This document shows positions 1-35,005 of a DNA stretch of 64,000 nucleotides, piece after piece. How positions within the stretch are numbered: position 1 is the stretch's first letter; the number at the start of each line of letters is the position of its first letter. Below the pieces are notes generated by a model. It searched no databases. It saw nothing but the letters and a program-made list of their open reading frames with translations, and was not told the DNA's origin. The stretch spans positions 15,331 to 79,330 of the forward strand of contig JAQYVW010000001.1 of the NCBI GenBank assembly GCA_030145325.1. The letters are read 5' to 3'. This DNA comes from Desulfurivibrionaceae bacterium (GTDB taxonomy: Bacteria; Desulfobacterota; Desulfobulbia; Desulfobulbales; UBA5123). The translations under genes and the position numbers were made by a program.

Positions 1-570
1 ATGACGCCCAGGAAGACCACAGTACAAGAAGGCGGTTACGGTATGGATACTGATTGCCCAAGGAATAGAGAGATAGATAAAGGGCTTGATCCACTTAGGG
101 TACTTAACCCCTTTCTGGTGGGCGTTAAGAACCACCCAACCACAGAGTACGTTCAGGATCAGATATCCGTTCAGTACAATCATGTCGTAAAAGAGCATGG
201 AGTGAGTGGTGGGATGCAACATAACGTTCAGAGCCCGGATGGGCTGGCCAAGATCGGCCATGATGAACAGCAGACACATGACAACTGCGCCAATGGCCAT
301 GAATTCACCAAGAATCGTGATGCGGCCAAAAGCCTTGTAATCATGAACATAGTAGGGGAGCACCAGCATCAAACCACCAGCGGCAACACCAACCAGAAAG
401 GTAAACTGAGAGATATAGAGGCCCCAAGATACATCACGGCTCATCCCGGTGTAGCCAAGTCCGTACTGGTACTGTTGGCTGTAGCTCAGAACCCCCACGC
501 CGATTAAACAGAGGAGGAATGCCATCCACCCCTTATACAAATTACTTCCTGTTAATCCTTTTTCCAGCAT
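1..570 (-). CDS. dsrP: DsrP (NrfD/PsrC-family membrane subunit of DsrMKJOP); N-terminal 190 codons, gene runs off the window start
   Basis: My own minus-strand translation from the ATG at 570..568 gives [70 protein letters not shown]... with no stop down to position 1. The sequence is polytopic and NrfD-like, and it starts 11 nt after the dsrO stop. The listed + ORF 1..507 is its antisense shadow. Confidence 0.75.
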
Positions 571-581
571 GACAGGTCACC

Positions 582-1415
582 TTAGAGAATATAGAAGATG
601 GAGGGGTTGGTTCCCGCAGACGGTTTCCGCTGAATGGTAAAATTCTCACTCAGAACCTTGTTGATCGCAGAACCTGGATCATTGAGGTCACCGAAAACCA
701 TGGCACCGTTTGAGGCTTCGACACAGGCAGGTAATTTGCCATGGGCCAAACGCTCGTTACAGAGGGTGCATTTCTCAACTACCCCACGCATCCGGGTGGG
801 ATAATCAGGGTTAATTCTTTTGATGAACGGCTTACCCAGTTCGTTTGCCCCTCGGGGGGAGCGCCAGTTAAAGCTCCGAGCCCCATAGGGACAGGCGGCC
901 ATGCAGAAGCGACAACCGATGCAACGATGGTAATCCATCATAACGATGCCATCTTTGTTCTTAAAGGTTGCCTGGGTGGGGCAGGCCCGAACACAAGGAG
1001 GATTGGCACAATGGTTACACAAGGTCATGATTGGCATCTTGTGCAATTCTTCGTTGCGTTTGTAGTGACTGTGCTCAGTGAAGGCATTTTCGTACTTTTC
1101 AATCCATATCCACTTGATCTCATCTTTCTTGTTGCCGAAATCAGGAACATTATGGAGGGAGTGACAAGCATGAATACATTTTCGACCAAGTCCGGGTTGG
1201 TTGCCGAATTTTTTTACATCGACTACCAATCCGTACTGCTTGCCTTGTGGCACAGCATCCTTGTGGGCTGATCCGTGCTCTGCAGCCTCGTGACCATGCC
1301 CCCCGGAGGCGAAGGCTTCACCCTTAAGCAGGGAATTGAAGGCCATCGGTGCGGTTACCCCGGCGATGGCGCCGAGCCCGGCTATCTTCAGGAATTTTCT
1401 TCTTTTGGAATCCAT
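582..1415 (-). CDS. dsrO: DsrO, periplasmic 4Fe-4S ferredoxin-like subunit with Tat signal
   Basis: Twin-arginine motif SKRRKFLKIAGLG. Several Cys-cluster ferredoxin motifs are present (CNHCANPPCVRACP, CIGCRFCMAACP, CTLCNERL...PACV). The start overlaps the dsrJ stop (TAATG). Confidence 0.85.
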   Translation of the reverse strand: MDSKRRKFLKIAGLGAIAGVTAPMAFNSLLKGEAFASGGHGHEAAEHGSAHKDAVPQGKQYGLVVDVKKFGNQPGLGRKCIHACHSLHNVPDFGNKKDEIKWIWIEKYENAFTEHSHYKRNEELHKMPIMTLCNHCANPPCVRACPTQATFKNKDGIVMMDYHRCIGCRFCMAACPYGARSFNWRSPRGANELGKPFIKRINPDYPTRMRGVVEKCTLCNERLAHGKLPACVEASNGAMVFGDLNDPGSAINKVLSENFTIQRKPSAGTNPSIFYIL

Positions 1416-1804
1416 TAGTTTGTCTCCTTAGGTTGGATGTGGCAATCCCAACAATAAGGTTTAACCGCAGCATAGGTATGGCACTCGTCGCAGAATTTCT
1501 TCTTGCTGACATGGCATTTCATGCAGCCGAGCATCAGACTCTTATCGTCGTAGGTTACGCCGCCAGCTTCCTTGATCGCGCCTCGCTCGGATTCTCGAAC
1601 GACTGTGTCACGGAACTCATTCAACAACTGCATATGCGAAGTGCGCATATATTCCGTAGGGCGGACACACTCCTTGGCGTTGCTTGGTTTTTCCGGTTTC
1701 GGTAGCGTTCCGGCGTCACCGCCGTTGTACCAGATCGGAAAAGTCATCAATCCGGCAAAGATTATCAATCCGGGTAAAATCTTCTTCATATCATACATCG
1801 GCAT
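1415..1804 (-). CDS. dsrJ: DsrJ, membrane-anchored triheme cytochrome c
   Basis: Three CXXCH motifs (CMKCH, CDECH, CWDCH) follow an N-terminal hydrophobic anchor (KKILPGLIIFAGLMTFPIW). The start is ambiguous among in-frame ATGs at 1804, 1798 and 1789, and the longer listed ORF start at 1864 lies inside dsrK. Confidence 0.8.
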   Translation of the reverse strand: MPMYDMKKILPGLIIFAGLMTFPIWYNGGDAGTLPKPEKPSNAKECVRPTEYMRTSHMQLLNEFRDTVVRESERGAIKEAGGVTYDDKSLMLGCMKCHVSKKKFCDECHTYAAVKPYCWDCHIQPKETN

Positions 1805-3428
1805 CACCCTCCATTCCAGCAAGAGGTGTGAAACGAAGATCCGTTTCTCTCTCTTTCTCTCCATCCATAATCAGGGCATTACCAACCAGTTCGGAAACGC
1901 CGCAGACGCCTACTTCTGGGTTCCAGTATTCCATCAGGGCGGAGAGGGTAGCCCGGTCGATGGCGCATACGCAGGAGAGGGTATCAACATCGTACCGCTC
2001 CTTGACATGCTTGACCGCGTTGGCACGCGGCAAGCCTGCCCGCATCCTCAACTCCATGATTTCACCAGTATTCAATCCGGTTCCGCTACCGCAGCAGAAG
2101 GTCTGCTCGCGAATGGTGGCTTCCGGCATCTCGTGAAATTTATTAACCACATTATTGATTACGTACCGTGGCTCATCCAGCAGCCCCATCCCCCTTGCGG
2201 TGTTGCAGGAGTCATGGAAGGTTACTGTCCGATGGTCATTCCGACTTGGATCAAGTTTTAATTTGCCGTTCTTGATCAGGTCGGCGGTAAACTCACTGAT
2301 ATGAACCATCTTGGTGGCTGCCGCATTGTCGAAACGGGTGCCGGTGATGGGTGAGGTTGGCACCTCTAGAAAATCTGCCGGGCCGTTCATGGTGTCCATG
2401 TATTGATGGATGACCCGCCACATATGGCCGCACTCACCACCCAGGATCCACTTGACCCCCAGACGTTTAGCTTCGGCATATTGCTTGGCGTTCAGTTTCT
2501 TCATCATCTCGTTATTGGTGAAGAGACCAAAGTTGCCACCCTCTGAAGCATAGGTGGACCAGGTATAGTCCAGTCCCAGATGCTCAAAGAGGAGCAGGTA
2601 GCCCATGGCAGTGTAGATGCCGGGCTCGGCAAATACGTCTGCCGAGGGGGTAATGAAGAGGATCTCAGCACCCTTACGGTTGAAGGTGGGCTCAATTTTG
2701 ATGCCGGTGATCTCTTCAACATCATCGCAGAGATAACCGATGTTGTCTTTGAAGGTATGGGGCTGCAAGCCCATATGGTTACCGGTTCGGTTGGAATTGG
2801 CAGCTGGCTCGAGGATCCAGTTGGTACCGATACCCACCAGATGGAGAAGCTCCCGGCCCATCATCGTCACCTCGGCGGTGTCGATGCCGTATGGGCAGTA
2901 AACCGAACAACGCCGGCATTCTGTACACTGGTAGTAGTACATGAACCATTCTTTCAGCACTTCAACGGTCATCGGCCTACCACCGGCCATCTTGCCGAGG
3001 ATCTTGCCAGCGGTGGTGAAATCATTACGATATACCGACCGCATCAGCTCAGCCCGCAGTACCGGCATGTTCTTGGGGTCACCGGTACCGAGGAAGAAAT
3101 GGCATTTGTCAGCGCAGGCGCCGCAACGTACGCAGCAATCCATGAAGACTTTGAGGGAACGGAATTTATCCAGCCGCTCCTTCATGCCATTGAGGATGAT
3201 TTCTTGCCAGTTCTCAGGCAGTTTCCAATCATCATCTTCTGGAGCCCATTCCCGCGGGTTGGGAAATTTATGGTACTCCACCATACTTTGTTTAGCTGGA
3301 TAGCAATAGTTACCCGACTTGAACTCGACCGGTGTGTCCATCCAATCCTTGGCTGGGACGGCGCCGGTCATCATCGACGGGTCTTTTGCTACGCTCTCAC
3401 CTAATTGATCTGCTTTGGGATCTGCCAT
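1791..3428 (-). CDS. dsrK: DsrK, HdrD-like catalytic Fe-S subunit
   Basis: 545 aa. Ferredoxin-type motifs CVRCGACADKCH and CTECRRCSVYCP plus a C-terminal Cys-rich CCG-like motif (TFCCGSGTG). It sits between dsrM and dsrJ. Confidence 0.9.
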   Translation of the reverse strand: MADPKADQLGESVAKDPSMMTGAVPAKDWMDTPVEFKSGNYCYPAKQSMVEYHKFPNPREWAPEDDDWKLPENWQEIILNGMKERLDKFRSLKVFMDCCVRCGACADKCHFFLGTGDPKNMPVLRAELMRSVYRNDFTTAGKILGKMAGGRPMTVEVLKEWFMYYYQCTECRRCSVYCPYGIDTAEVTMMGRELLHLVGIGTNWILEPAANSNRTGNHMGLQPHTFKDNIGYLCDDVEEITGIKIEPTFNRKGAEILFITPSADVFAEPGIYTAMGYLLLFEHLGLDYTWSTYASEGGNFGLFTNNEMMKKLNAKQYAEAKRLGVKWILGGECGHMWRVIHQYMDTMNGPADFLEVPTSPITGTRFDNAAATKMVHISEFTADLIKNGKLKLDPSRNDHRTVTFHDSCNTARGMGLLDEPRYVINNVVNKFHEMPEATIREQTFCCGSGTGLNTGEIMELRMRAGLPRANAVKHVKERYDVDTLSCVCAIDRATLSALMEYWNPEVGVCGVSELVGNALIMDGEKERETDLRFTPLAGMEGDADV

Positions 3429-3433
3429 GGTAG

Positions 3434-4429
3434 CTATTCCTTCTCAACGGGTATATTGGCGTCAGTCATAAACTCTCTGAACTCATCCTCATAGTCGGCA
3501 TAGGAATGCGGTTTGATATTAGGATCATTCCACGGATTAATATGTCGAACCATTCTACTGTTGTTAGCCATATTCCGGGTCGGGCTCATCCAGACACCAC
3601 CCATATGCATCAGCTTACTGAATGGGAAGTATGCCATCAGTGCGCAAACGAGGAAGATGTGGATGTAAAAGATAGAGCCAATCTCGCCGTGCAATACCGG
3701 TGAAAAGGTCGCTAGACCCACAGCAAGTTGTTTGATGTTGATTATGTCAACCCGCAAGAAGTAACGCATCAGAATGCCGGTCACCGCGATAGCGAAGATG
3801 AGAAACAAGGGGAAGTAATCAGCTGGTAATGAGATGTAACGCACATTGGCGTTAATCAGGCGGCGCAGAAACAAAAAGCCCACCGCCAGAAGAATAATCA
3901 GGTCTGACTGATAGAGAAGCGGTGCCCCTACCTGAAAGAGAGCGTCACCCGCCTCAATGGCATGCAAGAAATCGGGCACATGACCAACGAAGAGGCGCAT
4001 GTGACGAATAACAATGACCAGAAAGGTATAATGAAAAATCAGCCCGAACAGCCACAGGTACTTGCTGGAACCATAAACAAGCTTGGGGCCGTCATGAACT
4101 TCCGCCTTACTGTTGCGAAACAGGGAGCGGAATAAGAAAACTTCCAACAACATCCGCCCGGTTACACCCCAGAAGGTGGACGGACAGTCGAGCTTGTTCT
4201 GCTCGATGAATTTTAGGGAGTTAGCTTGCCCACAAGTGGTGGGGATCCGGAACGGTACCGGAGATTTGGCCCAATGCAATACCTTGTAGATGAATCCTCC
4301 CAAAAACATGGCAAACGCCATGTAGGGAATCACCACCCCGAACAGGTACTGCAGGCCCGCGGCCTTCACTCCCACGAAGGCCAGCGCAACAAGTGCCAAG
4401 ACTGCAATGAAGGGATACAGGACTTTCAT
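3434..4429 (-). CDS. dsrM: DsrM, NarI/HdrE-like membrane b-type cytochrome subunit
   Basis: 331 aa polytopic membrane protein with conserved His in its TM helices. It lies 5 nt upstream of dsrK in the canonical dsrMKJOP order. Confidence 0.85.
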   Translation of the reverse strand: MKVLYPFIAVLALVALAFVGVKAAGLQYLFGVVIPYMAFAMFLGGFIYKVLHWAKSPVPFRIPTTCGQANSLKFIEQNKLDCPSTFWGVTGRMLLEVFLFRSLFRNSKAEVHDGPKLVYGSSKYLWLFGLIFHYTFLVIVIRHMRLFVGHVPDFLHAIEAGDALFQVGAPLLYQSDLIILLAVGFLFLRRLINANVRYISLPADYFPLFLIFAIAVTGILMRYFLRVDIINIKQLAVGLATFSPVLHGEIGSIFYIHIFLVCALMAYFPFSKLMHMGGVWMSPTRNMANNSRMVRHINPWNDPNIKPHSYADYEDEFREFMTDANIPVEKE

Positions 4430-12600: not shown

Positions 12601-13155
12601 TTATTTATTCCCAAAAGCGTCGGCAAAAAGTTTATCGATGGCCGCGCGCCCCTTAGCGGTTAATTCTCTGGTTCCTGAGCCGACGATTGTTTTGTGTTCT
12701 ATTTTCGGGCTATCCTGCTGCCATTCGCCTTGCTGCCAGGAAAACCACTCATCTTTATCTTGATCATAAACGCTCACCGGCAGGTTGAATAGCTTGGCCA
12801 GTTCAACCGCCCAGCCGGTGCCGCCTTTGACGGTGTTGTCGTCTAGGATGACGCCCACCGCGAAGACCTGATGGCCCTTGTTGACCATGTGGAAGATGGT
12901 TTGTAGGACCTTGCGAATGTTCTCTGCCTGGTAATAGGTGCGGTTCATCATCTTGGCGGCAAGTTCCATGCTGATGTCACCACGGCGTAGATCTTCATCA
13001 GATAGAACAACCAGATGTTTGCGACGATCTGGAGTACGGCCAGCGTAGGTGAAGTTGACTTCTTTAACTGCCCATTTTTCGGCAGCCTCACCGAAGGCGC
13101 ATTCCGCCCCTTGCAGTCCTCCGCTGTACAGCGTGCATTGATCATTTTGCAACAT
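12601..13155 (-). CDS. hypothetical Rossmann-like protein (SLOG/DprA-like motif)
   Basis: 184 aa. The N-terminal LYSGGLQGAECAFGEAA resembles the SGGxxGxD motif of DprA/LOG-type SLOG domains. This is a by-eye call only. Confidence 0.45.
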   Translation of the reverse strand: MLQNDQCTLYSGGLQGAECAFGEAAEKWAVKEVNFTYAGRTPDRRKHLVVLSDEDLRRGDISMELAAKMMNRTYYQAENIRKVLQTIFHMVNKGHQVFAVGVILDDNTVKGGTGWAVELAKLFNLPVSVYDQDKDEWFSWQQGEWQQDSPKIEHKTIVGSGTRELTAKGRAAIDKLFADAFGNK

Positions 13156-13460
13156 CTTTATCTCCTCCCTCTTTGCTCATCATCCCTATGCGGCCAGGTG
13201 CTTCAGGCGGCAGCACAGTTTAAGAATATCAAGGCGGCAATCATGCCGCAGCCATAAAAGTATTATGCAGGCCAGCCTCTTACGAATAAAACAGAGATGG
13301 TATTTTTCAGTGCTTGTACTCAAGAGAAGCACTTTTGTCCAGTAATTTACCGTTTTCCATCATTTGCCTAGGATTTTCAGCCTTGCTTCGTAAAATTATT
13401 TTGTCCTAGGCCGTATCCTAAATCGCCAGCTTAGTTCTTCGGGAATTGGGCAGCAAACGC

Positions 13461-13495
13461 ACCAAGCCCGCCGGGATCATTCCGACGGGCTTGGT
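13461..13495 (-). terminator. possible terminator hairpin after the rhodanese gene
   Basis: A 10-bp stem accaagcccg/cgggcttggt with a 15-nt loop lies 26 nt past the stop. The U-tract is weak. Confidence 0.35.
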
Positions 13496-13520
13496 TAACT
13501 TGCATCTGGATCAGTGTTGC

Positions 13521-14846
13521 TTATTTTGCTTCGATTTCAAGTTCGCCGTCGTCGAAGGAGACCATGGCGTCCAGGAAGCGATTTTTTCGACCCATTTGCG
13601 CCAGAGCGGTGTGGGCCATTTCGGCACGAACCCCGGTGTTGCAGTAAAGGATGATTTCTTTACCGGCAGGGATATCTTTTACCCGCTGGGCAACCAGGTC
13701 TGCCGGAATGTTCATGGATCCGCCAATTTTTCCTGCCGTACACTCGTCAGGATTGCGGACGTCGACGATCACCATTTGACCGGGGTGTTCAATGGCGCTT
13801 TTGAAGTCAGCAATGGAGATGGTGCCTGGTTTGGCCTTGGCCTTGTAAGCAATCTTGCTGGCCGTGGCCCCGCTTTGCACGGGATTGCCAGCGCTCTGCC
13901 ACGCAGCAAACGGCATTGGCATTACCTGGACCTTCTTGTAGCCCCAGGAATGAATCATTTCGGCGGCATTGGTGGCACCAGGCCCGTAAACAATGATCGG
14001 CGCCATCTTGTTGCCTGGAAACATATTCTTGCTGGCGGCAAGTTTGTTGCGCTCAATCCCCACTGCCCCTTTGATGTGACCTTTCTTAACCTGGGCGGTA
14101 TCGCGCAGGTCGATCAAGACATGGGGGACACCTTTGCCGATGGCCATTTTTACCCAATCCGGGGCGGTGACCCCGGTTTCGGTTTTTACCCAGTCCGGGT
14201 AGCCGCCGATGTAAATCTTGACATCGGTGTAGCCAAGGCTCTTGGTTTTTAAGGAAGCGGTGGGGCTTAGGCAGCCACCGACGCCGTAGAAGATAATCGG
14301 GGTGTTTTTGTTTTTAGGTAATTTGCCGATAAACTTGTCAAAGGCCGGGGCGGGCATCAGGCCGGTGTCGGGGATATGGGCCATCTTGTATTTCATTGGC
14401 GGCCGCACGTCATAGATCTTGGTGGTGGGATTCTGGCGTAGTTTTTTAAATTGTGCTTTGGTGAGGCGCTCGTCGTTGGTGACGGTTTTTAGGATATCGA
14501 AACGAATAATTTCGTTGGCGATCTTTTCGCCGTTCTTTTCGGTAAAGTTGATCTGGAACCCTTTTTTCTTATAATTGCGAATATCGGCGAAGTCTTTAAC
14601 GTATTTTACCGTGGTCTGATTAGTAAACTTTACTACTTCCTTGTGGGACATAATGTCCATCTGGATGATTTTTGATTTCAGCGAGATATTCTCGAGAAAT
14701 CCCATCATCACTCCTTGTTGCTGTTCGTGACACATGCCGCAAAGCTTGGCGGTGGTTGATTTGCTACCGGTCTGAGCCATGGTCATTGGTGCCCAGGTGA
14801 GCGCGGCGATGAGTGCTACGGCTGGTACAAGTTTCTTTTTCTGCAT
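13521..14846 (-). CDS. periplasmic protein with one CXXCH motif and three rhodanese-like domains
   Basis: Signal peptide MQKKKLVPAVALIAALTWAPMTMA. A CGMCH motif follows right after the cleavage region. Three rhodanese-like repeats are present, and candidate active-site Cys loops occur in the first (YGVGGCLSP) and third (LYCNTGVRAE). Confidence 0.75.
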   Translation of the reverse strand: MQKKKLVPAVALIAALTWAPMTMAQTGSKSTTAKLCGMCHEQQQGVMMGFLENISLKSKIIQMDIMSHKEVVKFTNQTTVKYVKDFADIRNYKKKGFQINFTEKNGEKIANEIIRFDILKTVTNDERLTKAQFKKLRQNPTTKIYDVRPPMKYKMAHIPDTGLMPAPAFDKFIGKLPKNKNTPIIFYGVGGCLSPTASLKTKSLGYTDVKIYIGGYPDWVKTETGVTAPDWVKMAIGKGVPHVLIDLRDTAQVKKGHIKGAVGIERNKLAASKNMFPGNKMAPIIVYGPGATNAAEMIHSWGYKKVQVMPMPFAAWQSAGNPVQSGATASKIAYKAKAKPGTISIADFKSAIEHPGQMVIVDVRNPDECTAGKIGGSMNIPADLVAQRVKDIPAGKEIILYCNTGVRAEMAHTALAQMGRKNRFLDAMVSFDDGELEIEAK

Positions 14847-15257
14847 GTTCCCCCCTTCCGTTTTCTTGTAAATTATTTTTTCCAGTTAAAGCGGGCCTTT
14901 ATGCTGTTGGGGAAAGTTAGCATAAAGTTTATCTGGAAGCAATTTTTTATACTTGTGGGGGGAAGTTATATTTTTGTACCGAGCTGAAGAGGCCACCCGC
15001 GCAACCCCTTTGGCCATTTCAGGATTGGCCAATATCGCACTCAGTCTGTTGCATGTTTAGTGAACGGTGGTAATCAACTGAAAACAAGCAAAAAAATCAA
15101 AACTCGGCTGTGTCTCTGTAAAGAGGTCGTCGTTTGAGGTGGAAACAATGAGATAGAAATTTGCCAGATGTCGTAAAATGATGAGAGGTGGGTGCTTCTG
15201 AGAACAGGGCTGGAGAGGGGGCATCGCCGGAAAAATATCGCCCAATAACCATAAAAC

Positions 15258-15292
15258 AAAAAAAGGCCTTACAGCTATTTAGCTGTAAGGCC
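15258..15292 (-). terminator. intrinsic terminator downstream of tRNA-Phe
   Basis: The minus strand reads ggccttacagct-aaat-agctgtaaggcc followed by T7. Confidence 0.75.
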
Positions 15293-15302
15293 TTGAATGA
15301 TC

Positions 15303-15378
<76 letters not shown>

Positions 15379-15418
15379 GAAGAAATCGGGGCTACTATAT
15401 TGAGCGGTGCCGCTCTTG

Positions 15419-15889
15419 TCAAGATCTTTGTTCGGTGGATACCACCATGGTGCCTGCCACCAGGTCGTGCCAGGTGTTCCCCTTGCCACTGATTGCGGCC
15501 CAGAGGAACCCGGCCCCAAAGGGAAGCAATGAGAGGATAACTGCAGCCCAGCGGAGGAAGGCGATCCCGGTGGGCACTGGCTTTCCATCGTTTGTTACCA
15601 GTTTGATCCCCATGATGAGTTTGCCCACGGTTTGACCACCGTAGGCATGGAGAATAACACTGTAGAAGAGAATGGTCAGCGCGGGGGTTAACAGAAAAAG
15701 AACCAGAAAAAGAGTGCCGCCAATGAGGGCGGTGGTCAGACTTGCCGGAGAAAGACCGGTCAGGGCGTGCCCAAGAAGGAGGAAAAAGGTGCAATGGAGG
15801 GCGTTCAGCAGTGCTAAGTCGATGGCAAAAGCCATGCCTCGTGGCCAAAATCCTGCCGGGGTGTTCGCTGCGTAATGATCATCCCTCAT
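15419..15889 (-). CDS. RDD-family membrane protein
   Basis: 156 aa. The N-terminus is MRDDHY...FWPRGMAFAIDL, followed by three hydrophobic helices. Confidence 0.7.
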   Translation of the reverse strand: MRDDHYAANTPAGFWPRGMAFAIDLALLNALHCTFFLLLGHALTGLSPASLTTALIGGTLFLVLFLLTPALTILFYSVILHAYGGQTVGKLIMGIKLVTNDGKPVPTGIAFLRWAAVILSLLPFGAGFLWAAISGKGNTWHDLVAGTMVVSTEQRS

Positions 15890-15895
15890 GGTCTT

Positions 15896-16885
15896 TTACT
15901 TTTCCGGCTCGGGAGAGCGGCCTTCTTCATCATCGCTGGTAGCTAAGTCTATCTCGTCGGATACGTCCATGGTTAAGGCTAGTTCGTCGCCGTTGGTATC
16001 TTCGTCGGCGTCGCCAATCAGGGAGGAAAGGTCAAAGATCTCTTCGTTGTCATTTACCGGTTCCGCAGTGGCGCCGGAATCGGAGATCAAGTCGGAAAGA
16101 TCTATTTCTTCAAGATCCAGGCTGGAAGCAGTTTGCATTGGTTCTGTTTTTACTTCCAGGTTTTCTTCGGCAGGATATTCATCGTTATCGGTGGGCATTT
16201 CCAGGGAAAGGTCAAGGGAATCTTCTTCAGCAGTTTCTTCCTCTGCCGGGGCGGCATCGTCGTCGACAGGCATTTCCAGAGATAGTTCCAGAGAATCTTT
16301 TTCTGGGGCTTCTTCCTCGGTCATGACGATCTCTTCTTCGGCTTCTTCAACCGCAAGCTCGAGGGTTTCTTCCTCCGGTATTTCGAGGGTTATCTCCAGA
16401 GCTTCTTCCGGCTCAGGGGTGGGCTCGGCGGCAATCTCCTCCACCGCAATCTCTTCCTCCGGCTCAGGAATCTCAAGGGATATTTCAAGGGATTCTTCTT
16501 CCTCTTCCAGGCTAATTTCCGGAGCCTCTTCCTCCGGAATTACCAGAGAGATTTCTTCTTCGGGTTCTGCAAAAGAAAGTTCTATCTCGGGCGGAGGTTC
16601 AGAATGAATCATGCCCTGGCTTTCTGCTTCTAATTCGTCAAAGAGGGCGGTGGCGCCATCATGAACTTCTTCATTGACTGTTTCTTCGATATCGATCATC
16701 GGCGCATCATGCTCAACGGCTTCTCCCAGCGCTGCCGCCAGAAAGAAAGGCGGATCCGTCTTTTGGCCGGTTCCGGTATAGGCAAGAGGGGTGGCCGTTT
16801 GATCGACACCGCATTTGTTGCATGACGATTGTTGATCAAAGGAGATGAAGCCACATTTTTGGCATCGCATCAGGGATTTCCTCAT
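15896..16885 (-). CDS. zinc-ribbon protein with a long acidic repeat tail
   Basis: N-terminal CQKCGFISFDQQSSCNKCG. The remaining ~270 aa are Glu/Asp-rich with repeated (D/E)SL(E/D)LSLEMP and EISLE units. The stop is 6 nt before the RDD gene start. Confidence 0.65.
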   Translation of the reverse strand: MRKSLMRCQKCGFISFDQQSSCNKCGVDQTATPLAYTGTGQKTDPPFFLAAALGEAVEHDAPMIDIEETVNEEVHDGATALFDELEAESQGMIHSEPPPEIELSFAEPEEEISLVIPEEEAPEISLEEEEESLEISLEIPEPEEEIAVEEIAAEPTPEPEEALEITLEIPEEETLELAVEEAEEEIVMTEEEAPEKDSLELSLEMPVDDDAAPAEEETAEEDSLDLSLEMPTDNDEYPAEENLEVKTEPMQTASSLDLEEIDLSDLISDSGATAEPVNDNEEIFDLSSLIGDADEDTNGDELALTMDVSDEIDLATSDDEEGRSPEPEK

Positions 16886-22008: not shown

Positions 22009-24654
22009 TTATTTATCGCTTTTTAATAGCCATTGTTTTTTGATGGTTTTGGAAAAACCTTTCATTTCGGCTTTCAGGTGAAGGTCAAGGGTGGGTGGTT
22101 CTTTGTCCATGGAAATTTTACCGGCACCACCCATGCGGAGATCGAGAGCAGGTGAGGTAAGGGAAAATGTGTTGATGAGAAGTTGCTTGCCGCCGTTTTC
22201 GGTGTTGGCCCGAATTAGCATGCGGTCGAAAGGGAGGGTGTTACGGAGCTTGGAGGAATTGAGTTTAAGGGTGCTGAGGATGTCAAGCATGAAGCGCAGG
22301 GAGGGGTGCAGATTGGAGAGTTGCATAACTCTGCCGTTGTCGATGGTCAGTGACAGCTCGCCGTGTAAATTCTTACGCAGAGCGGTTACGGAATTTCCTT
22401 GGCTGGAGGCCTGGAGTCGGCCATAGGTACGGCCATTGATATAGATGGCCGGGCTTTGGGCGCCACTGGCGGTCAGGCCGCAGGCAATGAGATTGGCCAG
22501 GGTCACGTCCCTAAATTGTGATTCGAAATCCAGAGCAAGGGTGCCGTTTTCCGCAGCTGTTATTCCCCCGTTTAGTTCAACTTGGCACCAACTTCCAGAC
22601 CAAGAAAGAGCAACATCCTTCTCTGGCGGCGAGGTGGCGCTGGCGATCAATAATCGTTCTAACGGTGGGTATTCGCCAAGCTGTAATTGATCCACCTGGA
22701 TACGGATGGGGAAAGGTAGGCTGGGTGGCGCTTTAGCCAGCAGTGGTTCTGCATCTTCCTTGTCCGTGGTGGGTTCCGGGGCGGCGGCAGAGTTAGATTT
22801 TGGGATAGTGATGGTCAGCGTTGGGCAGATGATTTCCATGCCATCATTTCCCCCGCTCTGCCAAGGTTGAATACGACCGGAGGTGGAGAGGTTTACTGGT
22901 CCCTGGAGGGAAATGGTTATGGGGATCGGCGCGTTGGCTCGATAGCCGAAACTTGTTGTCAACAGCCAGGGGTCTTGTTGTAGCTGCTCCACCTTTACAT
23001 CCATGGCCAGGGTTGCCAAATTAAGCGGCCAATCGGCGCGACCGCTAAGGGTGATTTCTCCCTTTGCTTCGTCGCGGGCCACCAGCATGAGGTCTTCCAC
23101 GGTGGTGGCGCCGGTTTCTTGGTTGTGGGTGATTTTGGCGCGACACTTCGGCAGGGTATAGCGGTGGTGCGGTCCAGAGAGGATGGGGGTGGCAGGATCG
23201 GCGGCAACTTGCCAGCCCAGGCTGCCGTCGCTCAGCACTACGTTCCCGGCAAAGCTAAGGTGGTCATTGATTGTGGAAAAGGCCAGTTCGTTGATGGTGA
23301 GGAGACCTGTAACTTCTGGAGCGCTTATTTCTTTTTTGCTGAGGAGCTCGTTGAGTTTAGTTTGTAAGGGCGGCATCTTGTCGATGAGGGTGAGAAGTTG
23401 TGGCAGTGAAACCTCTAATTCGGCGATGTTGATGGTCTTGGTGGTGTCGGTAAGGTGAGCCTTGCCTTGGTCGACGCTGAGTAGCTTCTGGCCATCAAGG
23501 AGTAGTTGCAGGGCTGCATCCTGCACCGTTATTAACCCATTAACATCAACGCTGATACCGGCAGCGGCCTTGGTTACTACCACTTCGGTTTCATTTTTGC
23601 TGCCAGCGGCAACGAGTAATCCCACCTCACCAGTGGTGAGGCTGGTGGTGGCCGACCAGCTCAGGATCGGTTTTTCTTCTTCCTCGGGTGGGGGGGAGCT
23701 GAAAGAGCCGTTAAAGGCAAGATTGTTCAGGAGCACTATCCCGCGCGGCGCCAACCCTTGACTAAATCCCAGGGCTTGAATTTTTTTGTCGAGATCCTGT
23801 TGTATTTTGGGGCAGCGACCAGCAAAGTTCCATGCTTGGGCGAGATCTAATTCTGCGCCTTTTATCGCCAACGTAAAAGGCGCCTTGGTCAGGGGTTGCT
23901 GTGCGCTTCCTTCTTGGTGAAAGTGGACGTTGCTGAGAAGTGACCCTTCCAGGTTGAGGGTGGTGGCCTTGATGTCCATGAGGAGATCGGGAAGCAAGGA
24001 GATGGAAAGGTTTTCAGCTTGCACTTTTACGGTGCGGGGTAGATCCGCCACCGTTATCGGTAACTGCTGCAAGCTGGCTTGTGACATGGTCAGTTGCCAT
24101 AAGCCGTCTTGGTTAGAGGTTGCGGTGAGGTCGGCAAGCTTTCCTCCCTGGTAGGTGAGTTCAGTAATTTTAATCGTGGGGTGATCGGTACCGAAGGTGC
24201 ACTGTAGTCCCTTGATGACCAGATTGCCGACCTCTAAATCGGCCAACTTGGTAACGTTGGGAGGGAGTAAGTCGCCAAGGATGGCGATGATCTTATCGGG
24301 ACTGCCGCTGAGGTGATCAAGGATCAATTCCCCTTGTAGGGGGATGAGGGTCTGTAAGCGAATCTGCCCTTGGACGCTGAATCCCAGTTCGGTAATGGCC
24401 AGATCGGTCACCAGTACGCTGTCGTCACTAAGGCGATCAGGTACGGTTAACGTCCCGGCCAGGGAAAGTGTTTGCGCTGCCATGGCGTGGTGGGGCGAGC
24501 AGAGTGAGATGGTGAAGAAAAGAAGGGCGATGAGTGGTCTTAGGCGTTGCCAATGAGTTTTAATTTCTGGGCAACAGGCAGGACTCTCTTTTCTTCCTTG
24601 GCGGTTGGATCGGAAGATGGGGTCTTTTTCAGGGCCAGGCAAGATTTTTTGCAC
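22009..24654 (-). CDS. large exported beta-rich protein, AsmA/TamB-like (weak)
   Basis: 881 aa with an N-terminal anchor/signal LRPLIALLFFTISLCSPHHAMA. The protein is repetitive and beta-rich. The C-terminal ...LINTFSLTSPALDLRMGGAGKISM...LDLHLKAEMKG resembles AsmA C-terminal regions. The start is 2 nt after the upstream gene's stop. Confidence 0.5.
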   Translation of the reverse strand: MQKILPGPEKDPIFRSNRQGRKESPACCPEIKTHWQRLRPLIALLFFTISLCSPHHAMAAQTLSLAGTLTVPDRLSDDSVLVTDLAITELGFSVQGQIRLQTLIPLQGELILDHLSGSPDKIIAILGDLLPPNVTKLADLEVGNLVIKGLQCTFGTDHPTIKITELTYQGGKLADLTATSNQDGLWQLTMSQASLQQLPITVADLPRTVKVQAENLSISLLPDLLMDIKATTLNLEGSLLSNVHFHQEGSAQQPLTKAPFTLAIKGAELDLAQAWNFAGRCPKIQQDLDKKIQALGFSQGLAPRGIVLLNNLAFNGSFSSPPPEEEEKPILSWSATTSLTTGEVGLLVAAGSKNETEVVVTKAAAGISVDVNGLITVQDAALQLLLDGQKLLSVDQGKAHLTDTTKTINIAELEVSLPQLLTLIDKMPPLQTKLNELLSKKEISAPEVTGLLTINELAFSTINDHLSFAGNVVLSDGSLGWQVAADPATPILSGPHHRYTLPKCRAKITHNQETGATTVEDLMLVARDEAKGEITLSGRADWPLNLATLAMDVKVEQLQQDPWLLTTSFGYRANAPIPITISLQGPVNLSTSGRIQPWQSGGNDGMEIICPTLTITIPKSNSAAAPEPTTDKEDAEPLLAKAPPSLPFPIRIQVDQLQLGEYPPLERLLIASATSPPEKDVALSWSGSWCQVELNGGITAAENGTLALDFESQFRDVTLANLIACGLTASGAQSPAIYINGRTYGRLQASSQGNSVTALRKNLHGELSLTIDNGRVMQLSNLHPSLRFMLDILSTLKLNSSKLRNTLPFDRMLIRANTENGGKQLLINTFSLTSPALDLRMGGAGKISMDKEPPTLDLHLKAEMKGFSKTIKKQWLLKSDK

Positions 24655-24656
24655 CG

Positions 24657-27263
24657 CTATTCTCCAACCATCATCTGGAGTTGTTCCAGCATGGCGTTGC
24701 CGGGATTCATGCGCAGCGCTCGCTCCAGAAGTGCTCGTGCTTTGTCGGGTTGCTCGGCAGCAAGGGCATGGCGAACCGCCAGGTTGAAGAAACGGACTTC
24801 GTATGGGTAGCGTTCAATGGCGACCTGGAGAAGTTCAGCCAGTTCGGAGGTTTCACCCATGGCGTTCAGGGCATATGCCAAGTGTAATCGCGTTTCCCGA
24901 TCCTCTTTGTAGGCGAGAGCCGTTTTCAGGTGTTCGTATGCCTTGCCATACTGGCGATTGTTAAATGCTTCCAGCCCCAATTTCTTTTCTTCGTCAGCCT
25001 TGGCGAGGATCTTGTCGGCGTTGATGGCTTGCTCGCGTCCGTCTGGCCAGGGGGCGTCCAGTAAGCTGCGTAAGGTAACCTGGCCTTCCAGGCGGAGTTG
25101 ATCCAGTCGCATCCCGCCCAGATAGTTGCCTTGTAAAACTAATGGCACTGAGGTGGACAGGTTTTGTTCGTTGTCGTAGAGGTTGGTCTGGCGCAGCGTT
25201 AATTGCCCGCCGCTCACTTTAACCCCCAGCTTGTTGCTGGTGATGTTCATCTCCTCTAGGGAGAGGGTGCCGTCAGCAAGTACGACTCCCTGTTCCATAT
25301 GGTCAATCTTCCCGCCTTTAACAGAGACCTCGAAGGGGGTTTGGACGTGGATGGCGATGGTCCCATCCTGGAAGATCGATTGTTTGATGGTGGCACGACC
25401 GCCAAGGACGTCGATACAGGTTTGGCATTGGCGAAAAAGGGTGTTGCGTAATGTTAACTGACCATTTTCGGCCACCTTTACGCCCAGCCAATGTTGTTTA
25501 GTGGCTGGTGGCACCGTGGTTTCGGCTGGGGGAGTTGTAGTGGAGTTTGCTGCTGATGGTGCAGTGGTATCAGCAGAGGGAGATGTAGTTGCAGCGGATG
25601 TTAGTGGCGCAGTGGTATCAGCAGAGGGAGACGTAGTTGCAGCGGCTGCTGATGGCGTAGGGGTATCAGCAGAGGGAGACGTAGTTGCATCTGCTGTGGG
25701 TGGCGCAGGGGTATCAGCAGAGGGAGACGTAGTTGCATCGGCTGTTAGTGGTGCAGTGGTATCAGCAGAGGGAGACGTAGTTGCAGCGGCTGCGGGTGTT
25801 TTTTCCCTATTTTCGCTTTCCGTATCGCCTAGTTGTAAGAGAACCTTGTCGCCTTCACAACTGCCCTTGACGATGAGTTGCCCGCTGGGACCTGCAAGGA
25901 TGGTTACCCCCGGAGCTATTTTCAGGGTGCGACCGGCAGGCACCACTGTTTCGCCAAGGAGTCGGTAGCGGCCTGCCACCAAGGTGCCGGTTATTTCTGC
26001 CCCTAGGATTGGTTCGCCACTCTGTGGCAGTGTGATCGGTTTACTCATCACCGGCGCAGAGGGATTGCCCACCTGATCAACGGCGAGAACGCGATAGTAG
26101 TAAGTGGTGCCAGCAGCTACTTCTAGATCCTGCCATTGGAAATCGGAGACACTGCCCACCTGGGTATATCCCTGCATTGGTTCTTGGCTGCGCAGGATGT
26201 GGAAGGTTGCGACTTCGGGATCGGTGCTTACCCATTGCAGGAGAATCGATTTTTTGTTGGCTTCGGCTGTTAAATCGGTTGGCGGTGTCGGCGGAATTCC
26301 ATCCATGGAAACCAGGCGATCTATTTCTGGCCAGTCTCGGCGATTGCCATCGGCAGCGGCCAAGTGGATGAGAATCTGTTCATGGCGAGCTTTGTCTCCT
26401 TCCCGGACTACGTAGGATCCTTGATAGATGCCCGGTTGGGTTTCGGCTAAAGAGATTTCTTTGCGGAATTGACCAATGTCGAAGGTGGCCTTCATCCCAC
26501 GGTCGCCTTCAATTCCAATCACGATTTGTTCGCCCATCTTGAAGGTTTGCTCGGTGACGTTGCTAACTACCCGCAGAATTTTGGGGAGGCGGCTGCCCGA
26601 GGAGAAACCGGGGATTTGTTGGGTAATGTTAAAGGCCCAATCGTAGACCATGTCGCGTCGATGGACGTCACCCTTGGCGTTCACTGCCGAGGTTACCAGG
26701 GTTAGAACCGCACTTAGCGGATCTGTGGCCACTGCGAATTTGTGCCGCGATGATTTGTCACGCCAGGAGCCGAGAAGTTTGGCTTTGTCGTCGAAGAGGC
26801 GAACTTCTCCATCTAGAGCGTAGTTTTGAACGAAGCCGACATTGATACCGGTAAGATCGTGGACGACAATGAGCAGGATGCCGTTGCTCTTTACCCCTGC
26901 CTCGGCGAGAGATTTTTGCAGAGACGCCATCGAGATAGTTTCGTCTTTCTCGGCCACCAATTTTGCCTGTTGCGTGCAGGTATCAATGGTGTCGTTGACG
27001 AGAACCGTGAACCCCTTTTCGGTGAGGTAATTTTTTAGGACGCCACGGATGAGTTGACTTATTTTGGGGTCGGCATCTTTCGGGTTAATATACTGAGGCA
27101 GGGGAATGGCGATGTTCCGAGGCAAATCTCGTTCGGAGATGTACACCGGTGAAGTACTGCTTTCGGCAGCATGGACTGTAGGTAGGAAGGACGCAAAAAC
27201 AAAGAATAACAGAAAAAAAATGTGGATTCGGCCATGCTTTGTTTTATTGATTGTACTGCCCAT
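24657..27263 (-). CDS. exported mosaic protein: DUF799/TolB-N-like module, Ig-like region, FN3, beta-helix interrupted by STP repeats, C-terminal TPR
   Basis: 868 aa with the signal HIFFLLFFVFASFLPTVHA. NIAIPLPQYIN...ILLIVVHDLTGINVGFVQNYALDGEVRLFD resembles GNA1162/DUF799. An FN3-like stretch runs PPTDLTAE...YYYRVLAVDQVGNPS. PbH1-like repeats are present, and the TPR-like tail runs KLGLEAFNNRQYGKAYEHL.... Confidence 0.65.
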   Translation of the reverse strand: MGSTINKTKHGRIHIFFLLFFVFASFLPTVHAAESSTSPVYISERDLPRNIAIPLPQYINPKDADPKISQLIRGVLKNYLTEKGFTVLVNDTIDTCTQQAKLVAEKDETISMASLQKSLAEAGVKSNGILLIVVHDLTGINVGFVQNYALDGEVRLFDDKAKLLGSWRDKSSRHKFAVATDPLSAVLTLVTSAVNAKGDVHRRDMVYDWAFNITQQIPGFSSGSRLPKILRVVSNVTEQTFKMGEQIVIGIEGDRGMKATFDIGQFRKEISLAETQPGIYQGSYVVREGDKARHEQILIHLAAADGNRRDWPEIDRLVSMDGIPPTPPTDLTAEANKKSILLQWVSTDPEVATFHILRSQEPMQGYTQVGSVSDFQWQDLEVAAGTTYYYRVLAVDQVGNPSAPVMSKPITLPQSGEPILGAEITGTLVAGRYRLLGETVVPAGRTLKIAPGVTILAGPSGQLIVKGSCEGDKVLLQLGDTESENREKTPAAAATTSPSADTTAPLTADATTSPSADTPAPPTADATTSPSADTPTPSAAAATTSPSADTTAPLTSAATTSPSADTTAPSAANSTTTPPAETTVPPATKQHWLGVKVAENGQLTLRNTLFRQCQTCIDVLGGRATIKQSIFQDGTIAIHVQTPFEVSVKGGKIDHMEQGVVLADGTLSLEEMNITSNKLGVKVSGGQLTLRQTNLYDNEQNLSTSVPLVLQGNYLGGMRLDQLRLEGQVTLRSLLDAPWPDGREQAINADKILAKADEEKKLGLEAFNNRQYGKAYEHLKTALAYKEDRETRLHLAYALNAMGETSELAELLQVAIERYPYEVRFFNLAVRHALAAEQPDKARALLERALRMNPGNAMLEQLQMMVGE
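25518..25805 (-). repeat. 48-bp in-frame tandem repeat (5 good copies plus 1 degenerate copy)
   Basis: ggtatcagcagagggaga recurs at 25566, 25614, 25662, 25710 and 25758, an exact 48-nt period. It encodes TSPSADT(T/P)(A/T)P(L/P/S)(T/S/A)A(D/A/N)(A/S)T units. Confidence 0.85.
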
Positions 27264-27302
27264 GTGATTGTTGTCCCGATTGAAATGGAGGTGGTGTAGT
27301 CA

Positions 27303-27317
27303 GCAAAGGTGGTGCCT
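27303..27317 (-). promoter_or_regulatory. sigma-54-type -24/-12 promoter candidate upstream of the 24657..27263 gene
   Basis: The minus strand reads AGGCAC-CACCT-TTGC-T, against the consensus TGGCAC-N5-TTGCW. The GG-N10-GC spacing is correct, and the -12 element is 39 nt upstream of the ATG at 27263. Confidence 0.45.
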
Positions 27318-27373
27318 TTCGGTCTTAAATACCACCACCCGCAGGTAAACTAAGGCATTGATGCTCGCCTCAG

Positions 27374-28300
27374 TTATTGCACGACAAAAACAACCTTGGC
27401 TTGGGAGAGAAAGCTGCTTCGTTGATCGTTGGTGAAGATGTTGGCAGCATCATCAATGTTGATCACGGCATCGGTTCCTCTTTTCACGTTTATCGCTTCT
27501 ACCTGGAGAGGATCATTGCAGCCCCAACTGGCCAGTAGTCCCTTGGCTTTTTCCACTTTATTGGTAAAGCCACCACAGCCTCTTTCGGCAAGGATTGCCG
27601 GGATAATGGTGGAGGGGTCGAAGATTACCTCTTGCTTGGCGGTCATGATCCTATTGGCCAGAGCAGGTCGAAATCCTTTACCAGCCAAGACGAGGATCAA
27701 GCCATCCTTGGGGTTGGTCAGTTGCGAGGGTGGGGCCAGTTCTGTTGGCGTTTCAGCTGTGACGGGTTGGGGTTGCTCTGACGCGGTATTGGTTGGTGGT
27801 GGGGTGGGGGCGGCAAAGCTAAAATTGGTCTTGGCCTTTGGAAGCAACCCTTCCGATTGCATCAAGGGAAGGATGACGTCATAGGCTGAACCATGACCGC
27901 GAATATTAACCCGTAAACAGACATCGGCAGATCCATCATCCTTATTATATTTCTCACCACATGTTACAGCCCCGCGCAGGAACCCCTTGACGGTGGAGAG
28001 GACGGTATCGTTCATCGACATACCGTCTTTAATAGTTGTTTCGCCGCTGACCGTCACCCCCTGGAGTTGTTCAAGGAGATCCCGTTGTGCCAACACCTTC
28101 GCGGCGCGAATGGCGCTGTATCGTGACTGGCCGGGACTTGAGGAGGCAACGACCTGGATATAACCTTCCTGGAAGATTTGCACCGGATCGGTTACTTGTT
28201 GCAATTGCTCGGCTGCTGCTGATCCTGAAGTTGTCATAATGAATAGGGCGGTAACCAACAACAACAGGCCGGCTGGAAGTTGTTTCATTTTCTGTCTCAT
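27374..28300 (-). CDS. exported LPP20/FlgP-like protein with a Pro-rich linker and an unknown C-terminal domain
   Basis: 308 aa with the signal LLLLVTALFIMTTSGSAAA. The module YSAIRAAKVLAQRDLLEQLQGVTVSGETTI is LPP20-like. The linker is APTPPPTNTASEQPQPVTAETPTELAPP. Confidence 0.55.
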   Translation of the reverse strand: MRQKMKQLPAGLLLLVTALFIMTTSGSAAAEQLQQVTDPVQIFQEGYIQVVASSSPGQSRYSAIRAAKVLAQRDLLEQLQGVTVSGETTIKDGMSMNDTVLSTVKGFLRGAVTCGEKYNKDDGSADVCLRVNIRGHGSAYDVILPLMQSEGLLPKAKTNFSFAAPTPPPTNTASEQPQPVTAETPTELAPPSQLTNPKDGLILVLAGKGFRPALANRIMTAKQEVIFDPSTIIPAILAERGCGGFTNKVEKAKGLLASWGCNDPLQVEAINVKRGTDAVINIDDAANIFTNDQRSSFLSQAKVVFVVQ

Positions 28301-28387
28301 TTTTTGTTACTCCTTCAATACTGGGAATAAAGTAGCCTGTGGACTCTGCTTTAGGGAATCTTGAAAAATTTTATCATCGGAATATTA

Positions 28388-28480
28388 GATATGTGCCTGC
28401 TGTAAAATTTTTCGCATGCCTCGGAGTTTCGTGACCTCGCCTACCTGATCTCCAACGAAAATCCTAATTATCCAAGACAC
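28388..28480. repeat. second copy of the structured intergenic repeat family
   Basis: atatgtgcctgctgtaaaatttttcgcatgcctcggagtttcgtgacctcgcctacctgatctccaacgaaaatcctaattatccaagacac aligns at about 80 percent with 6084-6176. It ends 4 nt from the stop of the 28484 gene. Confidence 0.6.
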
Positions 28481-28483
28481 CCT

Positions 28484-29731: not shown

Positions 29732-29756
29732 GTAAAGTCCTCCATTGGTTCTTTGC

Positions 29757-29767
29757 GGGGGGGGGGG
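29757..29767. repeat. homopolymeric G11 (C11 on the coding strand) tract
   Basis: 11 consecutive G, lying 13 nt upstream of the RBS of the SLH-like lipoprotein gene. With the longer listed start at 29773, the tract falls inside codons 3-6 (PPPP). Confidence 0.9.
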
Positions 29768-29878
29768 AGTCACTGATGCAGCGCAGCATCGGGTGACATG
29801 AGCTATGGCCTGAAATCTGTCGTTACGTTCCTTCTCGATCAGGAGTTAAACGTTATCGGTGACTATGGGTGACGTAAG

Positions 29879-31819: not shown

Positions 31820-31925
31820 GACGTCTTCCTCCGGTTTTTGTAATACTCCCGCATTGCCGGGGTTAAGTCGCGCGTTGCGGGAGTAGTGTCGTTGAAAGTT
31901 TTTGAAGGCGCTAACTGCGAAATGA

Positions 31926-33911: not shown

Positions 33912-33917
33912 GGTTCT

Positions 33918-34958: not shown

Positions 34959-35005
34959 TGGAGTGAAGATATTACTAATTATCAATTTGTTAACATCAAA
35001 AAAGG

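Follow-up and report, generated by a model that had tools for sequence, protein, structure and literature searches.

We report that a 64,000-nucleotide stretch of a Desulfurivibrionaceae genome (assembly GCA_030145325.1, contig JAQYVW010000001.1, positions 15,331 to 79,330; this whole stretch is called the window, and positions are given within it) encodes a 441-residue protein in which a CXXCH motif, a candidate attachment site for heme c, is followed by an OB-fold β-barrel and three tandem rhodanese domains. We establish here the architecture, conservation pattern, fold, distribution and gene neighborhoods of the family to which this protein belongs; what we infer for the protein itself is its export, its heme attachment, its substrate and the direction of electron flow. 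A role in periplasmic sulfur handling is quite probable. Covalent attachment of heme c to the CXXCH motif is somewhat favored, and on a fine balance we prefer to read the protein as a periplasmic sulfane-sulfur carrier in which that heme would link Cys-persulfide chemistry to electron transfer.

Parts of the gene and its product (window positions; all on the minus strand):

13521..14846 (-): whole coding sequence, 441 aa plus stop, ATG start (open reading frame list, coordinates re-translated)

14775..14846 (-): predicted Sec signal peptide, residues 1-24, cleavage after TMA (TMA/Q), assigned by inspection only

14727..14741 (-): CGMCH (C36, C39, H40), residues 36-40, candidate heme c attachment site

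14496..14717 (-): OB-fold β-barrel, residues 44-117, a domain of ~80 aa (AlphaFold2 [AF2], Foldseek, VIA-align)

14184..14459 (-): Rhd1, residues 130-221, best Pfam stretch, with the non-canonical loop YGVGGCLSP

14271..14273 (-): codon of C192, at the end of the Rhd1 loop and the N terminus of helix 193-203 (AF2)

13863..14141 (-): Rhd2, residues 236-328, loop YGPGATN, no Cys

13572..13829 (-): Rhd3, residues 340-425, canonical C-x-x-G-x-R loop (YCNTGVRAEM)

13641..13643 (-): codon of C402, the predicted canonical persulfide-forming Cys of Rhd3

13524..13571 (-): C-terminal β-hairpin extension, residues 426-441, strands 427-432 and 435-440 (AF2)

A CXXCH motif is conserved at the head of a rhodanese protein

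The protein begins with a leader that has a basic n-region (MQKKK), a hydrophobic core and an A-x-A-like end, and that on inspection contains neither a lipobox Cys nor a twin-Arg motif. An initial annotation of this DNA, made from the sequence alone, had described a signal peptide followed within about 12 residues by CGMCH, and C36 is indeed residue 12 of the predicted mature protein. In the AF2 model the predicted local distance difference test score (pLDDT) falls below 50 at residues 1-8 and 18-26, and the CXXCH motif lies on a short helix (residues 34-37) in front of the barrel.

A homolog search of a collection of 5.8 billion clusters yielded 204 proteins at E ≤ 1e-3; residue counts given here as parts of 120 refer to the best 120 of these 204. 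C36, C39 and H40 are all present in 116 of the 120; of the remaining four, three are records truncated at the N terminus and one, P0109, has an unrelated N terminus. Because the motif is kept in 116 of 120 and the exceptions are truncated or chimeric, its presence is not a matter of chance. H40 itself occurs in every orthologous-group member with an intact N terminus (116/116), the motif is invariant in a 24-row alignment of the N-terminal domain, and all 14 of the genuine distant relatives of this domain whose sequences were examined carry it, down to 28% identity. The initial annotation had named loss of CXXCH among homologs as a finding that would refute its proposal; instead, the motif is near-universal in the orthologous group and kept in distant subfamilies. 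The genome also encodes cytochrome c assembly functions, with three PF01578 (CcsA/CcmC/CcmF-type) matches, all above cut-off.

In P0109, a fragment of a Cache-type sensor (precomputed Pfam matches PF17201, PF08269 and PF17200) stands in place of the leader, the CXXCH motif and most of the barrel. Either an assembly chimera or a genuine exchange of domains could account for this.

The N-terminal domain is predicted to form an OB-fold barrel

Modeled alone by AF2, the N-terminal domain reaches a pLDDT of 90.2 and forms a short helix with the CXXCH motif, then a barrel of five or six strands and one helix (strands 20-29, 34-38, 43-47, 53-55, 70-78 and 81-89 in domain numbering). Conserved residues of the barrel include M47, G49, H68, G96, F97, A110 and R115-F116-D117; M47 and a likewise conserved M48 come after the motif. 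In a wide search with VIA-align, which is independent of Foldseek, 117 chains scored Z ≥ 5 and no chain reached Z ≥ 8; a broad variety of OB-folds makes up the rows shown, at Z 5.8-7.0. Neither a cytochrome c fold nor CcmE was among the 50 rows listed by Foldseek or by the wide VIA-align search, an absence that is not in itself evidence of different folds. As modeled, the domain appears to belong to the generic OB-folds and to none of the known cytochrome folds.

We also searched residues 27-125 against 1.84 billion representative proteins, which gave only 29 representatives at E ≤ 1e-3. Fifteen were examined, and 14 of them have CxxCH at the same place and, where not cut short, continue into rhodanese domains; from these sequences, the domain therefore appears to be confined, as far as known, to proteins in which rhodanese domains follow it. 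The fifteenth match is an unrelated leucine-rich repeat protein. In the ESM Atlas, the best score for the domain was 0.77, below the level of 0.9 taken as a lead, and every match was a rhodanese cluster.

Two of the three rhodanese domains carry a conserved cysteine

The three rhodanese-like domains proposed in the initial annotation are borne out by three stretches matching PF00581 (E 1.8e-38; 131.5 bits against a cut-off of 22.2), with no other Pfam family above cut-off. Among NCBIfam models, none reaches its curated cut-off, the PspE and GlpE matches of Rhd3 staying below theirs.

The Cys of the Rhd1 loop (GVGGCLSP), which the same annotation had taken for a candidate active-site residue, is invariant, as C192 occurs in all 120 listed homologs; the canonical catalytic position, however, is occupied by G188, which aligns with the Cys that is catalytic in 6mxv, 3d1p and 6bev, with C192 four residues later. 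Of the 120 homologs, 86 have G at position 188, 17 have D and 17 have C. Rhd2 is presumably non-catalytic, as its sequence has no Cys, and its position 288 is G in 119 of the 120. Rhd3 is the canonical domain: residues 357-424 match the rhodanese domain of 4ocg and 3nta (persulfide-reductase-type entries) at E 9.9e-10, Cys on Cys. C402 of its loop YCNTGVRAE, correctly recognized from the start as a Cys loop, is kept in 118 of the 120 homologs, the other two having gaps. The C-terminal extension shows the conserved pattern YLDA...F..G...IEE.

For the whole protein, the AF2 model has a pLDDT of 90.1 and a predicted template modeling score of 0.77. In Foldseek it matches multi-rhodanese structures with E values down to 5e-14 (1yt8, EanB; YnjE, E 4e-10). 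The whole-model template modeling (TM) score against these structures is low (~0.2), so the arrangement of the domains differs.

The family is widespread and includes a probable selenoprotein branch

The best 120 homologs are 40%-100% identical to the protein and nearly all of one length. Their names are only "rhodanese-like domain-containing protein", "rhodanese-related sulfurtransferase" or "hypothetical". Named taxa comprise Desulfobulbaceae and other Thermodesulfobacteriota, Thiovibrio, Caldimicrobium, Nitrospirota and Gammaproteobacteria, to which the genome loci described below add SAR324, Rhodocyclaceae/Methyloversatilis, Thiohalocapsa, Geobacteraceae and Planctomycetota. Within the organism's own small family, four of six genomes carry the gene.

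The source genome encodes two full-length paralogs at ~30% identity. One, on contig C84 (L056:1495-2820, minus strand; G000:C84:18758-20059), has 441 aa, 31% identity, the barrel and three rhodanese domains; in an hhalign comparison its N-terminal domain aligns with that of our protein from just past the CXXCH (probability 61%, E 8e-5, 64 columns). The other, on contig C74 (L057:1447-2883, plus strand; G000:C74:15942-17276), has a CNGCH motif and an in-frame TGA at the expected second Cys of the Rhd1 loop. An in-frame TGA at this same position (C-x4-U) occurs in six loci (L057, L046, L047, L051, L052 and L054), which besides C74 come from Syntrophaceae, Desulforhopalus (two loci), Desulfopila and Nitrospirae. 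In all six, a hairpin of 6-7 bp begins 17-18 nt 3' of the TGA; the stem sequences differ, and the single-sequence z-scores are unremarkable (-0.5 to -2.2). The genome encodes a tRNA-Sec (C123:6853-6950). The TGA in these paralogs is thus probably read as selenocysteine, which would make them a selenoprotein subfamily of the same OB plus three-rhodanese architecture. Rhodanese families are among the predicted prokaryotic selenoproteins (PMC9312934; this and the other papers cited by PMC number are cited from excerpts or an abstract). Since the Cys or TGA site of the paralogs falls within one MAFFT column of C192, we take C192 as a reactive, redox-type position.

In three of the TGA loci, from Desulforhopalus and Desulfopila (L047:1217-5069, L051:3750-6935 and L052:5850-9038), genes for an ArsR regulator and an HMA-domain P-type ATPase immediately precede the homolog. 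This placement is a hint that the branch with CxxC only has a role connected with metal(loid)s. A tree of 22 rows (three short rows dropped; midpoint root, for drawing only) recovers the group of our protein with support of 100/100 and a group without the motif with 96/89. The CxxC-only row, which has a long branch, is placed beside a CXXCH row (89/80), and this position fits loss of the His in the CxxC-only lineage.

Some relatives are encoded beside Psr-like or multiheme cytochrome genes

The organism carries dsr genes, as the initial annotation had assumed: dsrMKJOP lies at window positions 1-4429 on the minus strand, with DsrM, DsrK, DsrJ and DsrO above NCBIfam cut-offs and DsrP cut by the window edge. 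The rhodanese gene is outside this operon. On its contig, the only NrfD-family gene is dsrP, 13 kb away; two more are on other contigs.

We surveyed 50 related loci (54 were fetched, and four were omitted as partial matches), with flanks of 5 kb, some of them shorter. Given the relatedness of the loci, the following counts are descriptive and not independent:

CXXCH loci (n = 39): multiheme gene (at least 3 CXXCH) within 5 kb in 5; Psr-like Mo-pterin or NrfD gene within 5 kb in 4

CxxC-only loci (n = 3): multiheme gene within 5 kb in 0; Psr-like gene within 5 kb in 0

Loci with neither (n = 8, including L035, an N-truncated match): multiheme gene within 5 kb in 0; Psr-like gene within 5 kb in 4

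Genes of the Psr-like Mo-pterin, 4Fe-4S and NrfD type (Pfam Molybdopterin, Fer4_11 and NrfD) are thus found within 5 kb in 8 of the 50 loci, and multiheme cytochrome genes (3-12 CXXCH) accompany 5 of the 39 CXXCH loci and none of the 11 others. At L020 and L049 the gene order is psrA, psrB, psrC, a YeeE-like Sulf_transp gene and then the homolog, while at L031 and L041 a cytochrome gene with 10 or 8 CXXCH motifs ends 90-135 nt before the homolog on the same strand. All-against-all clustering of the open reading frames of the 50 loci found no neighbor common to more than 8 of them.

Elsewhere in the source genome, contig C79 (L067:3400-9291, minus strand) encodes a molybdopterin oxidoreductase (772 aa), two tetraheme cytochromes, a 4Fe-4S protein and an NrfD-family membrane subunit. 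This cluster is a candidate periplasmic reductase of the polysulfide, thiosulfate or tetrathionate type, and a possible partner of the rhodanese proteins.

On another contig (G000:C82:95-2639, plus strand), open reading frames of 252 aa, 158 aa with three CXXCH motifs, and 408 aa of the NrfD family follow one another. Judged by the NrfD match and the CXXCH counts, this layout recalls a locus of cable bacteria described in the excerpted text as a dsrO/dsrP-homolog-plus-cytochrome locus (PMC13047784).

Proposed mechanism

In the reading that we prefer, the protein would be soluble and periplasmic, with a CXXCH segment, an OB barrel, Cys-bearing Rhd1 and Rhd3 domains, and Rhd2 as an inactive spacer. 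After Sec export, the cytochrome c maturation system would load one heme c onto C36 and C39, with H40 as the proximal ligand and H68 or M47 as a possible sixth. C402 would take up sulfane sulfur from polysulfide, thiosulfate or elemental sulfur as a persulfide, like other single-Cys rhodaneses, and C192 of Rhd1 would receive or resolve this sulfur. The heme would then donate or accept electrons for the Cys-persulfide chemistry, or connect it to periplasmic cytochromes, so that sulfur transfer would be coupled to one- or two-electron redox steps. Such a protein could serve sulfur disproportionation, oxidation or reduction in this dsr-containing member of the Desulfobulbales, and may feed, or substitute for, Psr-type molybdoenzymes.

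A bolder version of this scheme, which we consider unlikely, would make the protein a kind of c-type cytochrome that has gone unrecognized, its heme on an N-terminal tail packed onto the OB barrel, acting as a molybdenum-free periplasmic sulfur oxidoreductase. The heme iron and the Cys of Rhd1 (selenocysteine in the paralogs) would form one catalytic center; by analogy with TsdA, SoxAX or MccSep, that Cys might be a ligand of the heme. The center would reduce polysulfide, or else oxidize sulfide or thiosulfate to form a persulfide on the protein, exchanging electrons with the periplasmic cytochrome pool of the Desulfobulbales.

Weighing the heme reading against alternatives

Conservation of the His of a CXXCH motif is a hallmark of heme c sites. 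Attachment of a heme here is consistent with the invariance of H40, with Sec export, with the presence of maturation genes and with the finding of multiheme neighbors beside CXXCH members only. The coupling of sulfur transfer to electron transfer suggested in the initial annotation is supported in part: it gains from the conserved motif, the Sec-type leader, the assembly genes, the dsr genes of the organism and the Psr-like and YeeE-like genes near relatives. It gains nothing from the gene's own surroundings: the co-occurrence with psr that had been put forward as a check is seen at related loci and not in the window.

Several observations weigh against the preferred reading. In the window, no sulfur or cytochrome gene and no psr, phs or sqr neighbor adjoins the gene; among the surveyed loci, 31 of the 39 with CXXCH have neither a Psr-like nor a multiheme gene within 5 kb, and the form found oftenest beside Psr is the one without the motif (4 of 8 loci, against 4 of 39 with CXXCH). 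Distribution within the order is patchy, at 18 of 201 sampled genomes and 13 of 66 genera (E ≤ 1e-80). The N-terminal domain matches no cytochrome family of Pfam or NCBIfam at E ≤ 1, and its four Foldseek matches at E ≤ 0.001 (1e-4 to 5e-4) are all CusF. No candidate for the sixth ligand is invariant, M47 being present in 111 and H68 in 107 of the 120 listed homologs. The C84 paralog has the barrel without CXXCH and an Rhd1 loop with two Cys (C-x4-C), and L047, L051 and L052 have CxxC followed by Ser, Ala or Val in place of the His, together with the TGA. These sister subfamilies, without CXXCH or with CXXC minus the His, keep a non-heme reading alive.

The protein would on such a reading still be a periplasmic sulfurtransferase, but the CXXC(H) on a CusF-like barrel would serve either as a redox dithiol/disulfide for the persulfide or selenylsulfide of Rhd1, or as a thiophilic metal site in which Cu(I), Zn or a similar metal is held by the two Cys, the His and the adjacent Met-Met. 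This is the main alternative, and we regard it as doubtful but worth keeping in view. It draws on the match of the N-terminal domain to the Cu(I)/Ag(I) chaperones CusF and SilF (SilF follows at E ~0.01; TMt 0.63-0.70 and 15%-20% identity for the two), on the conserved M47 and M48 after the motif, on the lack of a cytochrome family match and on the three CxxC loci without His that follow ArsR and P-type ATPase genes. CusF and SilF are, like this domain, small periplasmic OB-fold barrels and its best Foldseek matches; the likeness is nevertheless no closer than that to dozens of other OB-folds, as in the wide VIA-align search SilF scored Z 6.4-6.5 against 7.0 for the top row and many unrelated OB-folds did equally well or better, and the Pfam CusF family gives no match at E ≤ 1. 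A dithiol, moreover, needs no His, yet H40 is present throughout the intact orthologs and the distant relatives, and the place of the CxxC-only row beside a CXXCH row in the tree, on its long branch, fits secondary loss of that residue.

Two further alternatives concern function more than structure, and we find both improbable. In one, very unlikely, heme is present only as a site for binding or sensing a ligand such as sulfide or polysulfide, or as a structural staple, and the rhodanese domains form an ordinary carrier of the Sud/PspE kind. Most loci do lack a redox partner gene nearby, and the variable sixth-ligand candidates would leave room for an open or exchangeable coordination site; but neither Pfam nor NCBIfam identifies a sensing output domain, and the selenocysteine or Cys in the Rhd1 loop of the paralogs points to redox catalysis and not to binding alone. 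No longer fused forms appeared at E ≤ 1e-20 among 7999 candidates, which is weak evidence. In the other, which is more improbable still, the protein detoxifies or traffics a non-sulfur chalcogen or a metal(loid) (selenite, tellurite, arsenite or cyanide) and takes no part in energy-yielding sulfur metabolism. This is suggested by the CxxC/selenocysteine subfamily beside ArsR and heavy-metal P-type ATPase genes and by the link of the Geobacter rhodanese-like lipoprotein ExtH to selenite (PMC5877670). Those neighbors, however, belong to a distant subfamily (27%-32% identity) and not to the group of our protein, which is found in sulfur-cycling lineages (Desulfobulbales, Thiovibrio, Caldimicrobium, Thiohalocapsa and Nitrospirota) and is tied to Psr and YeeE-like genes wherever any tie exists.

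Comparison with known proteins

Sud of Wolinella succinogenes is a periplasmic carrier with a rhodanese fold and a single Cys, thought to deliver polysulfide sulfur to Psr; it is a homodimer of a single domain of ~130 aa and is not known to have a CXXCH or an OB domain. Its similarity to our protein is marginal and confined to Rhd3 (PDB 1qxn, deposited as "sulfide dehydrogenase"; E 0.11). Unlike Sud, our protein has 441 aa and four domains, three of them rhodaneses and two of these with a conserved Cys; the resemblance extends to gene context in that some relatives adjoin Psr-like operons. YnjE of E. coli is likewise periplasmic and has a canonical catalytic Cys in its last domain only. It shares with our protein the three tandem rhodanese domains (PDB 2wlr and 3ipo; Foldseek E 4e-10 over 396 columns) and the placement of the canonical Cys in the last of them, a shared architecture and not shared descent. 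It lacks the OB domain and the CXXCH, the sequence match is poor (E 0.12-0.14), the TM score of 0.24 reflects a different arrangement of the domains, and Rhd1 of our protein, in contrast, keeps an invariant non-canonical Cys.

Closer in taxonomy and context are proteins known from sulfur-disproportionating and sulfur-oxidizing relatives. In Desulfurivibrio dismutans, a secreted three-rhodanese sulfurtransferase belongs to the psr operon, an operon up-regulated in sulfur disproportionation (PMC12142623), and periplasmic rhodaneses termed "pRho" are universal and highly expressed in cable bacteria and highly expressed also in D. alkaliphilus (PMC13047784). In Desulfolithobacter, one rhodanese was detected solely under thiosulfate disproportionation (PMC9751629). 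The D. dismutans sulfurtransferase and pRho share with our protein the order, a signal peptide, three PF00581 domains and a link to Psr and disproportionation or to oxidation (PMC12142623, PMC13047784, PMC5516251). The excerpted accounts of them mention no heme motif and no N-terminal barrel; the comparison is one of descriptions and assigns them to no subfamily. The D. dismutans protein is described there as a predicted lipoprotein, whereas ours has no lipobox Cys.

The pairing of heme c with a reactive Cys or selenocysteine has a parallel in MccSep (ExtKL) of Geobacter sulfurreducens, a periplasmic pentaheme selenoprotein that reduces polysulfide at a Cys-ligated heme and for which selenocysteine is essential (PMC13510729). 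In our family, the heme motif goes with a Cys, and with selenocysteine in paralogs. We found no relation between the two in sequence or fold: in its excerpted description MccSep carries five hemes on a helical cap with an Ig-like stem and has no rhodanese, the Geobacter rhodanese ExtH being a separate protein. CcmE is an OB-fold protein with heme on a terminal extension (PMC3884852), so the arrangement of a heme on an OB-fold has a precedent, although CcmE holds its heme through a single C-terminal His and not through CXXCH.

Periplasmic multi-domain rhodaneses linked to Psr are known already. What is not described in the literature searched is the CXXCH on an OB-fold prefix, the invariant non-canonical Cys of Rhd1 and the sister group that bears selenocysteine; nor was a heme-linked rhodanese found described in this full-text literature, most subscription journals and supplements lying outside it.

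The excerpts available repeatedly describe high expression of periplasmic rhodaneses under sulfur-disproportionating or sulfur-oxidizing conditions and treat these proteins as passive carriers (PMC13047784, PMC12142623, PMC9751629). Should a heme c sit beside a reactive Cys or selenocysteine in this family, it would be a concrete candidate for the missing redox step, with a bearing on the open periplasmic steps of sulfur disproportionation and of dsr-based sulfide oxidation, and would be an OB-fold-based addition to the short list of non-helical c-type cytochromes. Should there be no heme, the family would still be a well-defined and widespread periplasmic CXXC-plus-rhodanese module, with ~200 sequences in at least five phyla, that current annotation reduces to the label "rhodanese-like domain-containing protein".

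Upstream region and other genes of the window

Two features lie upstream of the coding sequence:

14850..14859 (-): Shine-Dalgarno-like sequence GGAAGGGGGG, 4 nt 5' of the ATG (direct reading of the sequence)

14847..15262 (-): upstream intergenic region of 416 nt, which should contain the rhodanese gene's own promoter

A tRNA-Phe gene at 15303-15378 lies upstream of the rhodanese gene and is followed by a terminator-like hairpin at 15294-15263. From this terminator to the ATG, a promoter scan of the gene's strand gave no convincing sigma-70 site. An Rfam search of 13100-15450 at E ≤ 1 returned the tRNA-Phe alone, plus a below-threshold match on its opposite strand, and so no known RNA family in the 416-nt spacer. 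In a search of sequencing reads, one DNA run from marine sediment shared 0.22 of the gene's words; no RNA run was listed.

Within the window the gene is solitary, standing between the tRNA-Phe and an open reading frame without a family match. Its neighbors are a second EF-G, two open reading frames without family matches, the tRNA-Phe and an RDD-family protein. The downstream open reading frame of 184 aa (12601-13155) has no Pfam or NCBIfam match and is not conserved beside homologs.

Two other parts of the window may be mentioned. At 15896-16885 on the minus strand, a protein of 329 aa without a Pfam match has two N-terminal CxxC pairs followed by a very long acidic repeat region rich in Glu and Pro; its gene adjoins that of the RDD-family membrane protein. 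Further away, at 22009-35009 on the minus strand, a run of large genes with no or weak matches (TPR, SLH, fibronectin type III, CsgG-like and FlgT_N) looks like a cell-envelope or surface-structure cluster.

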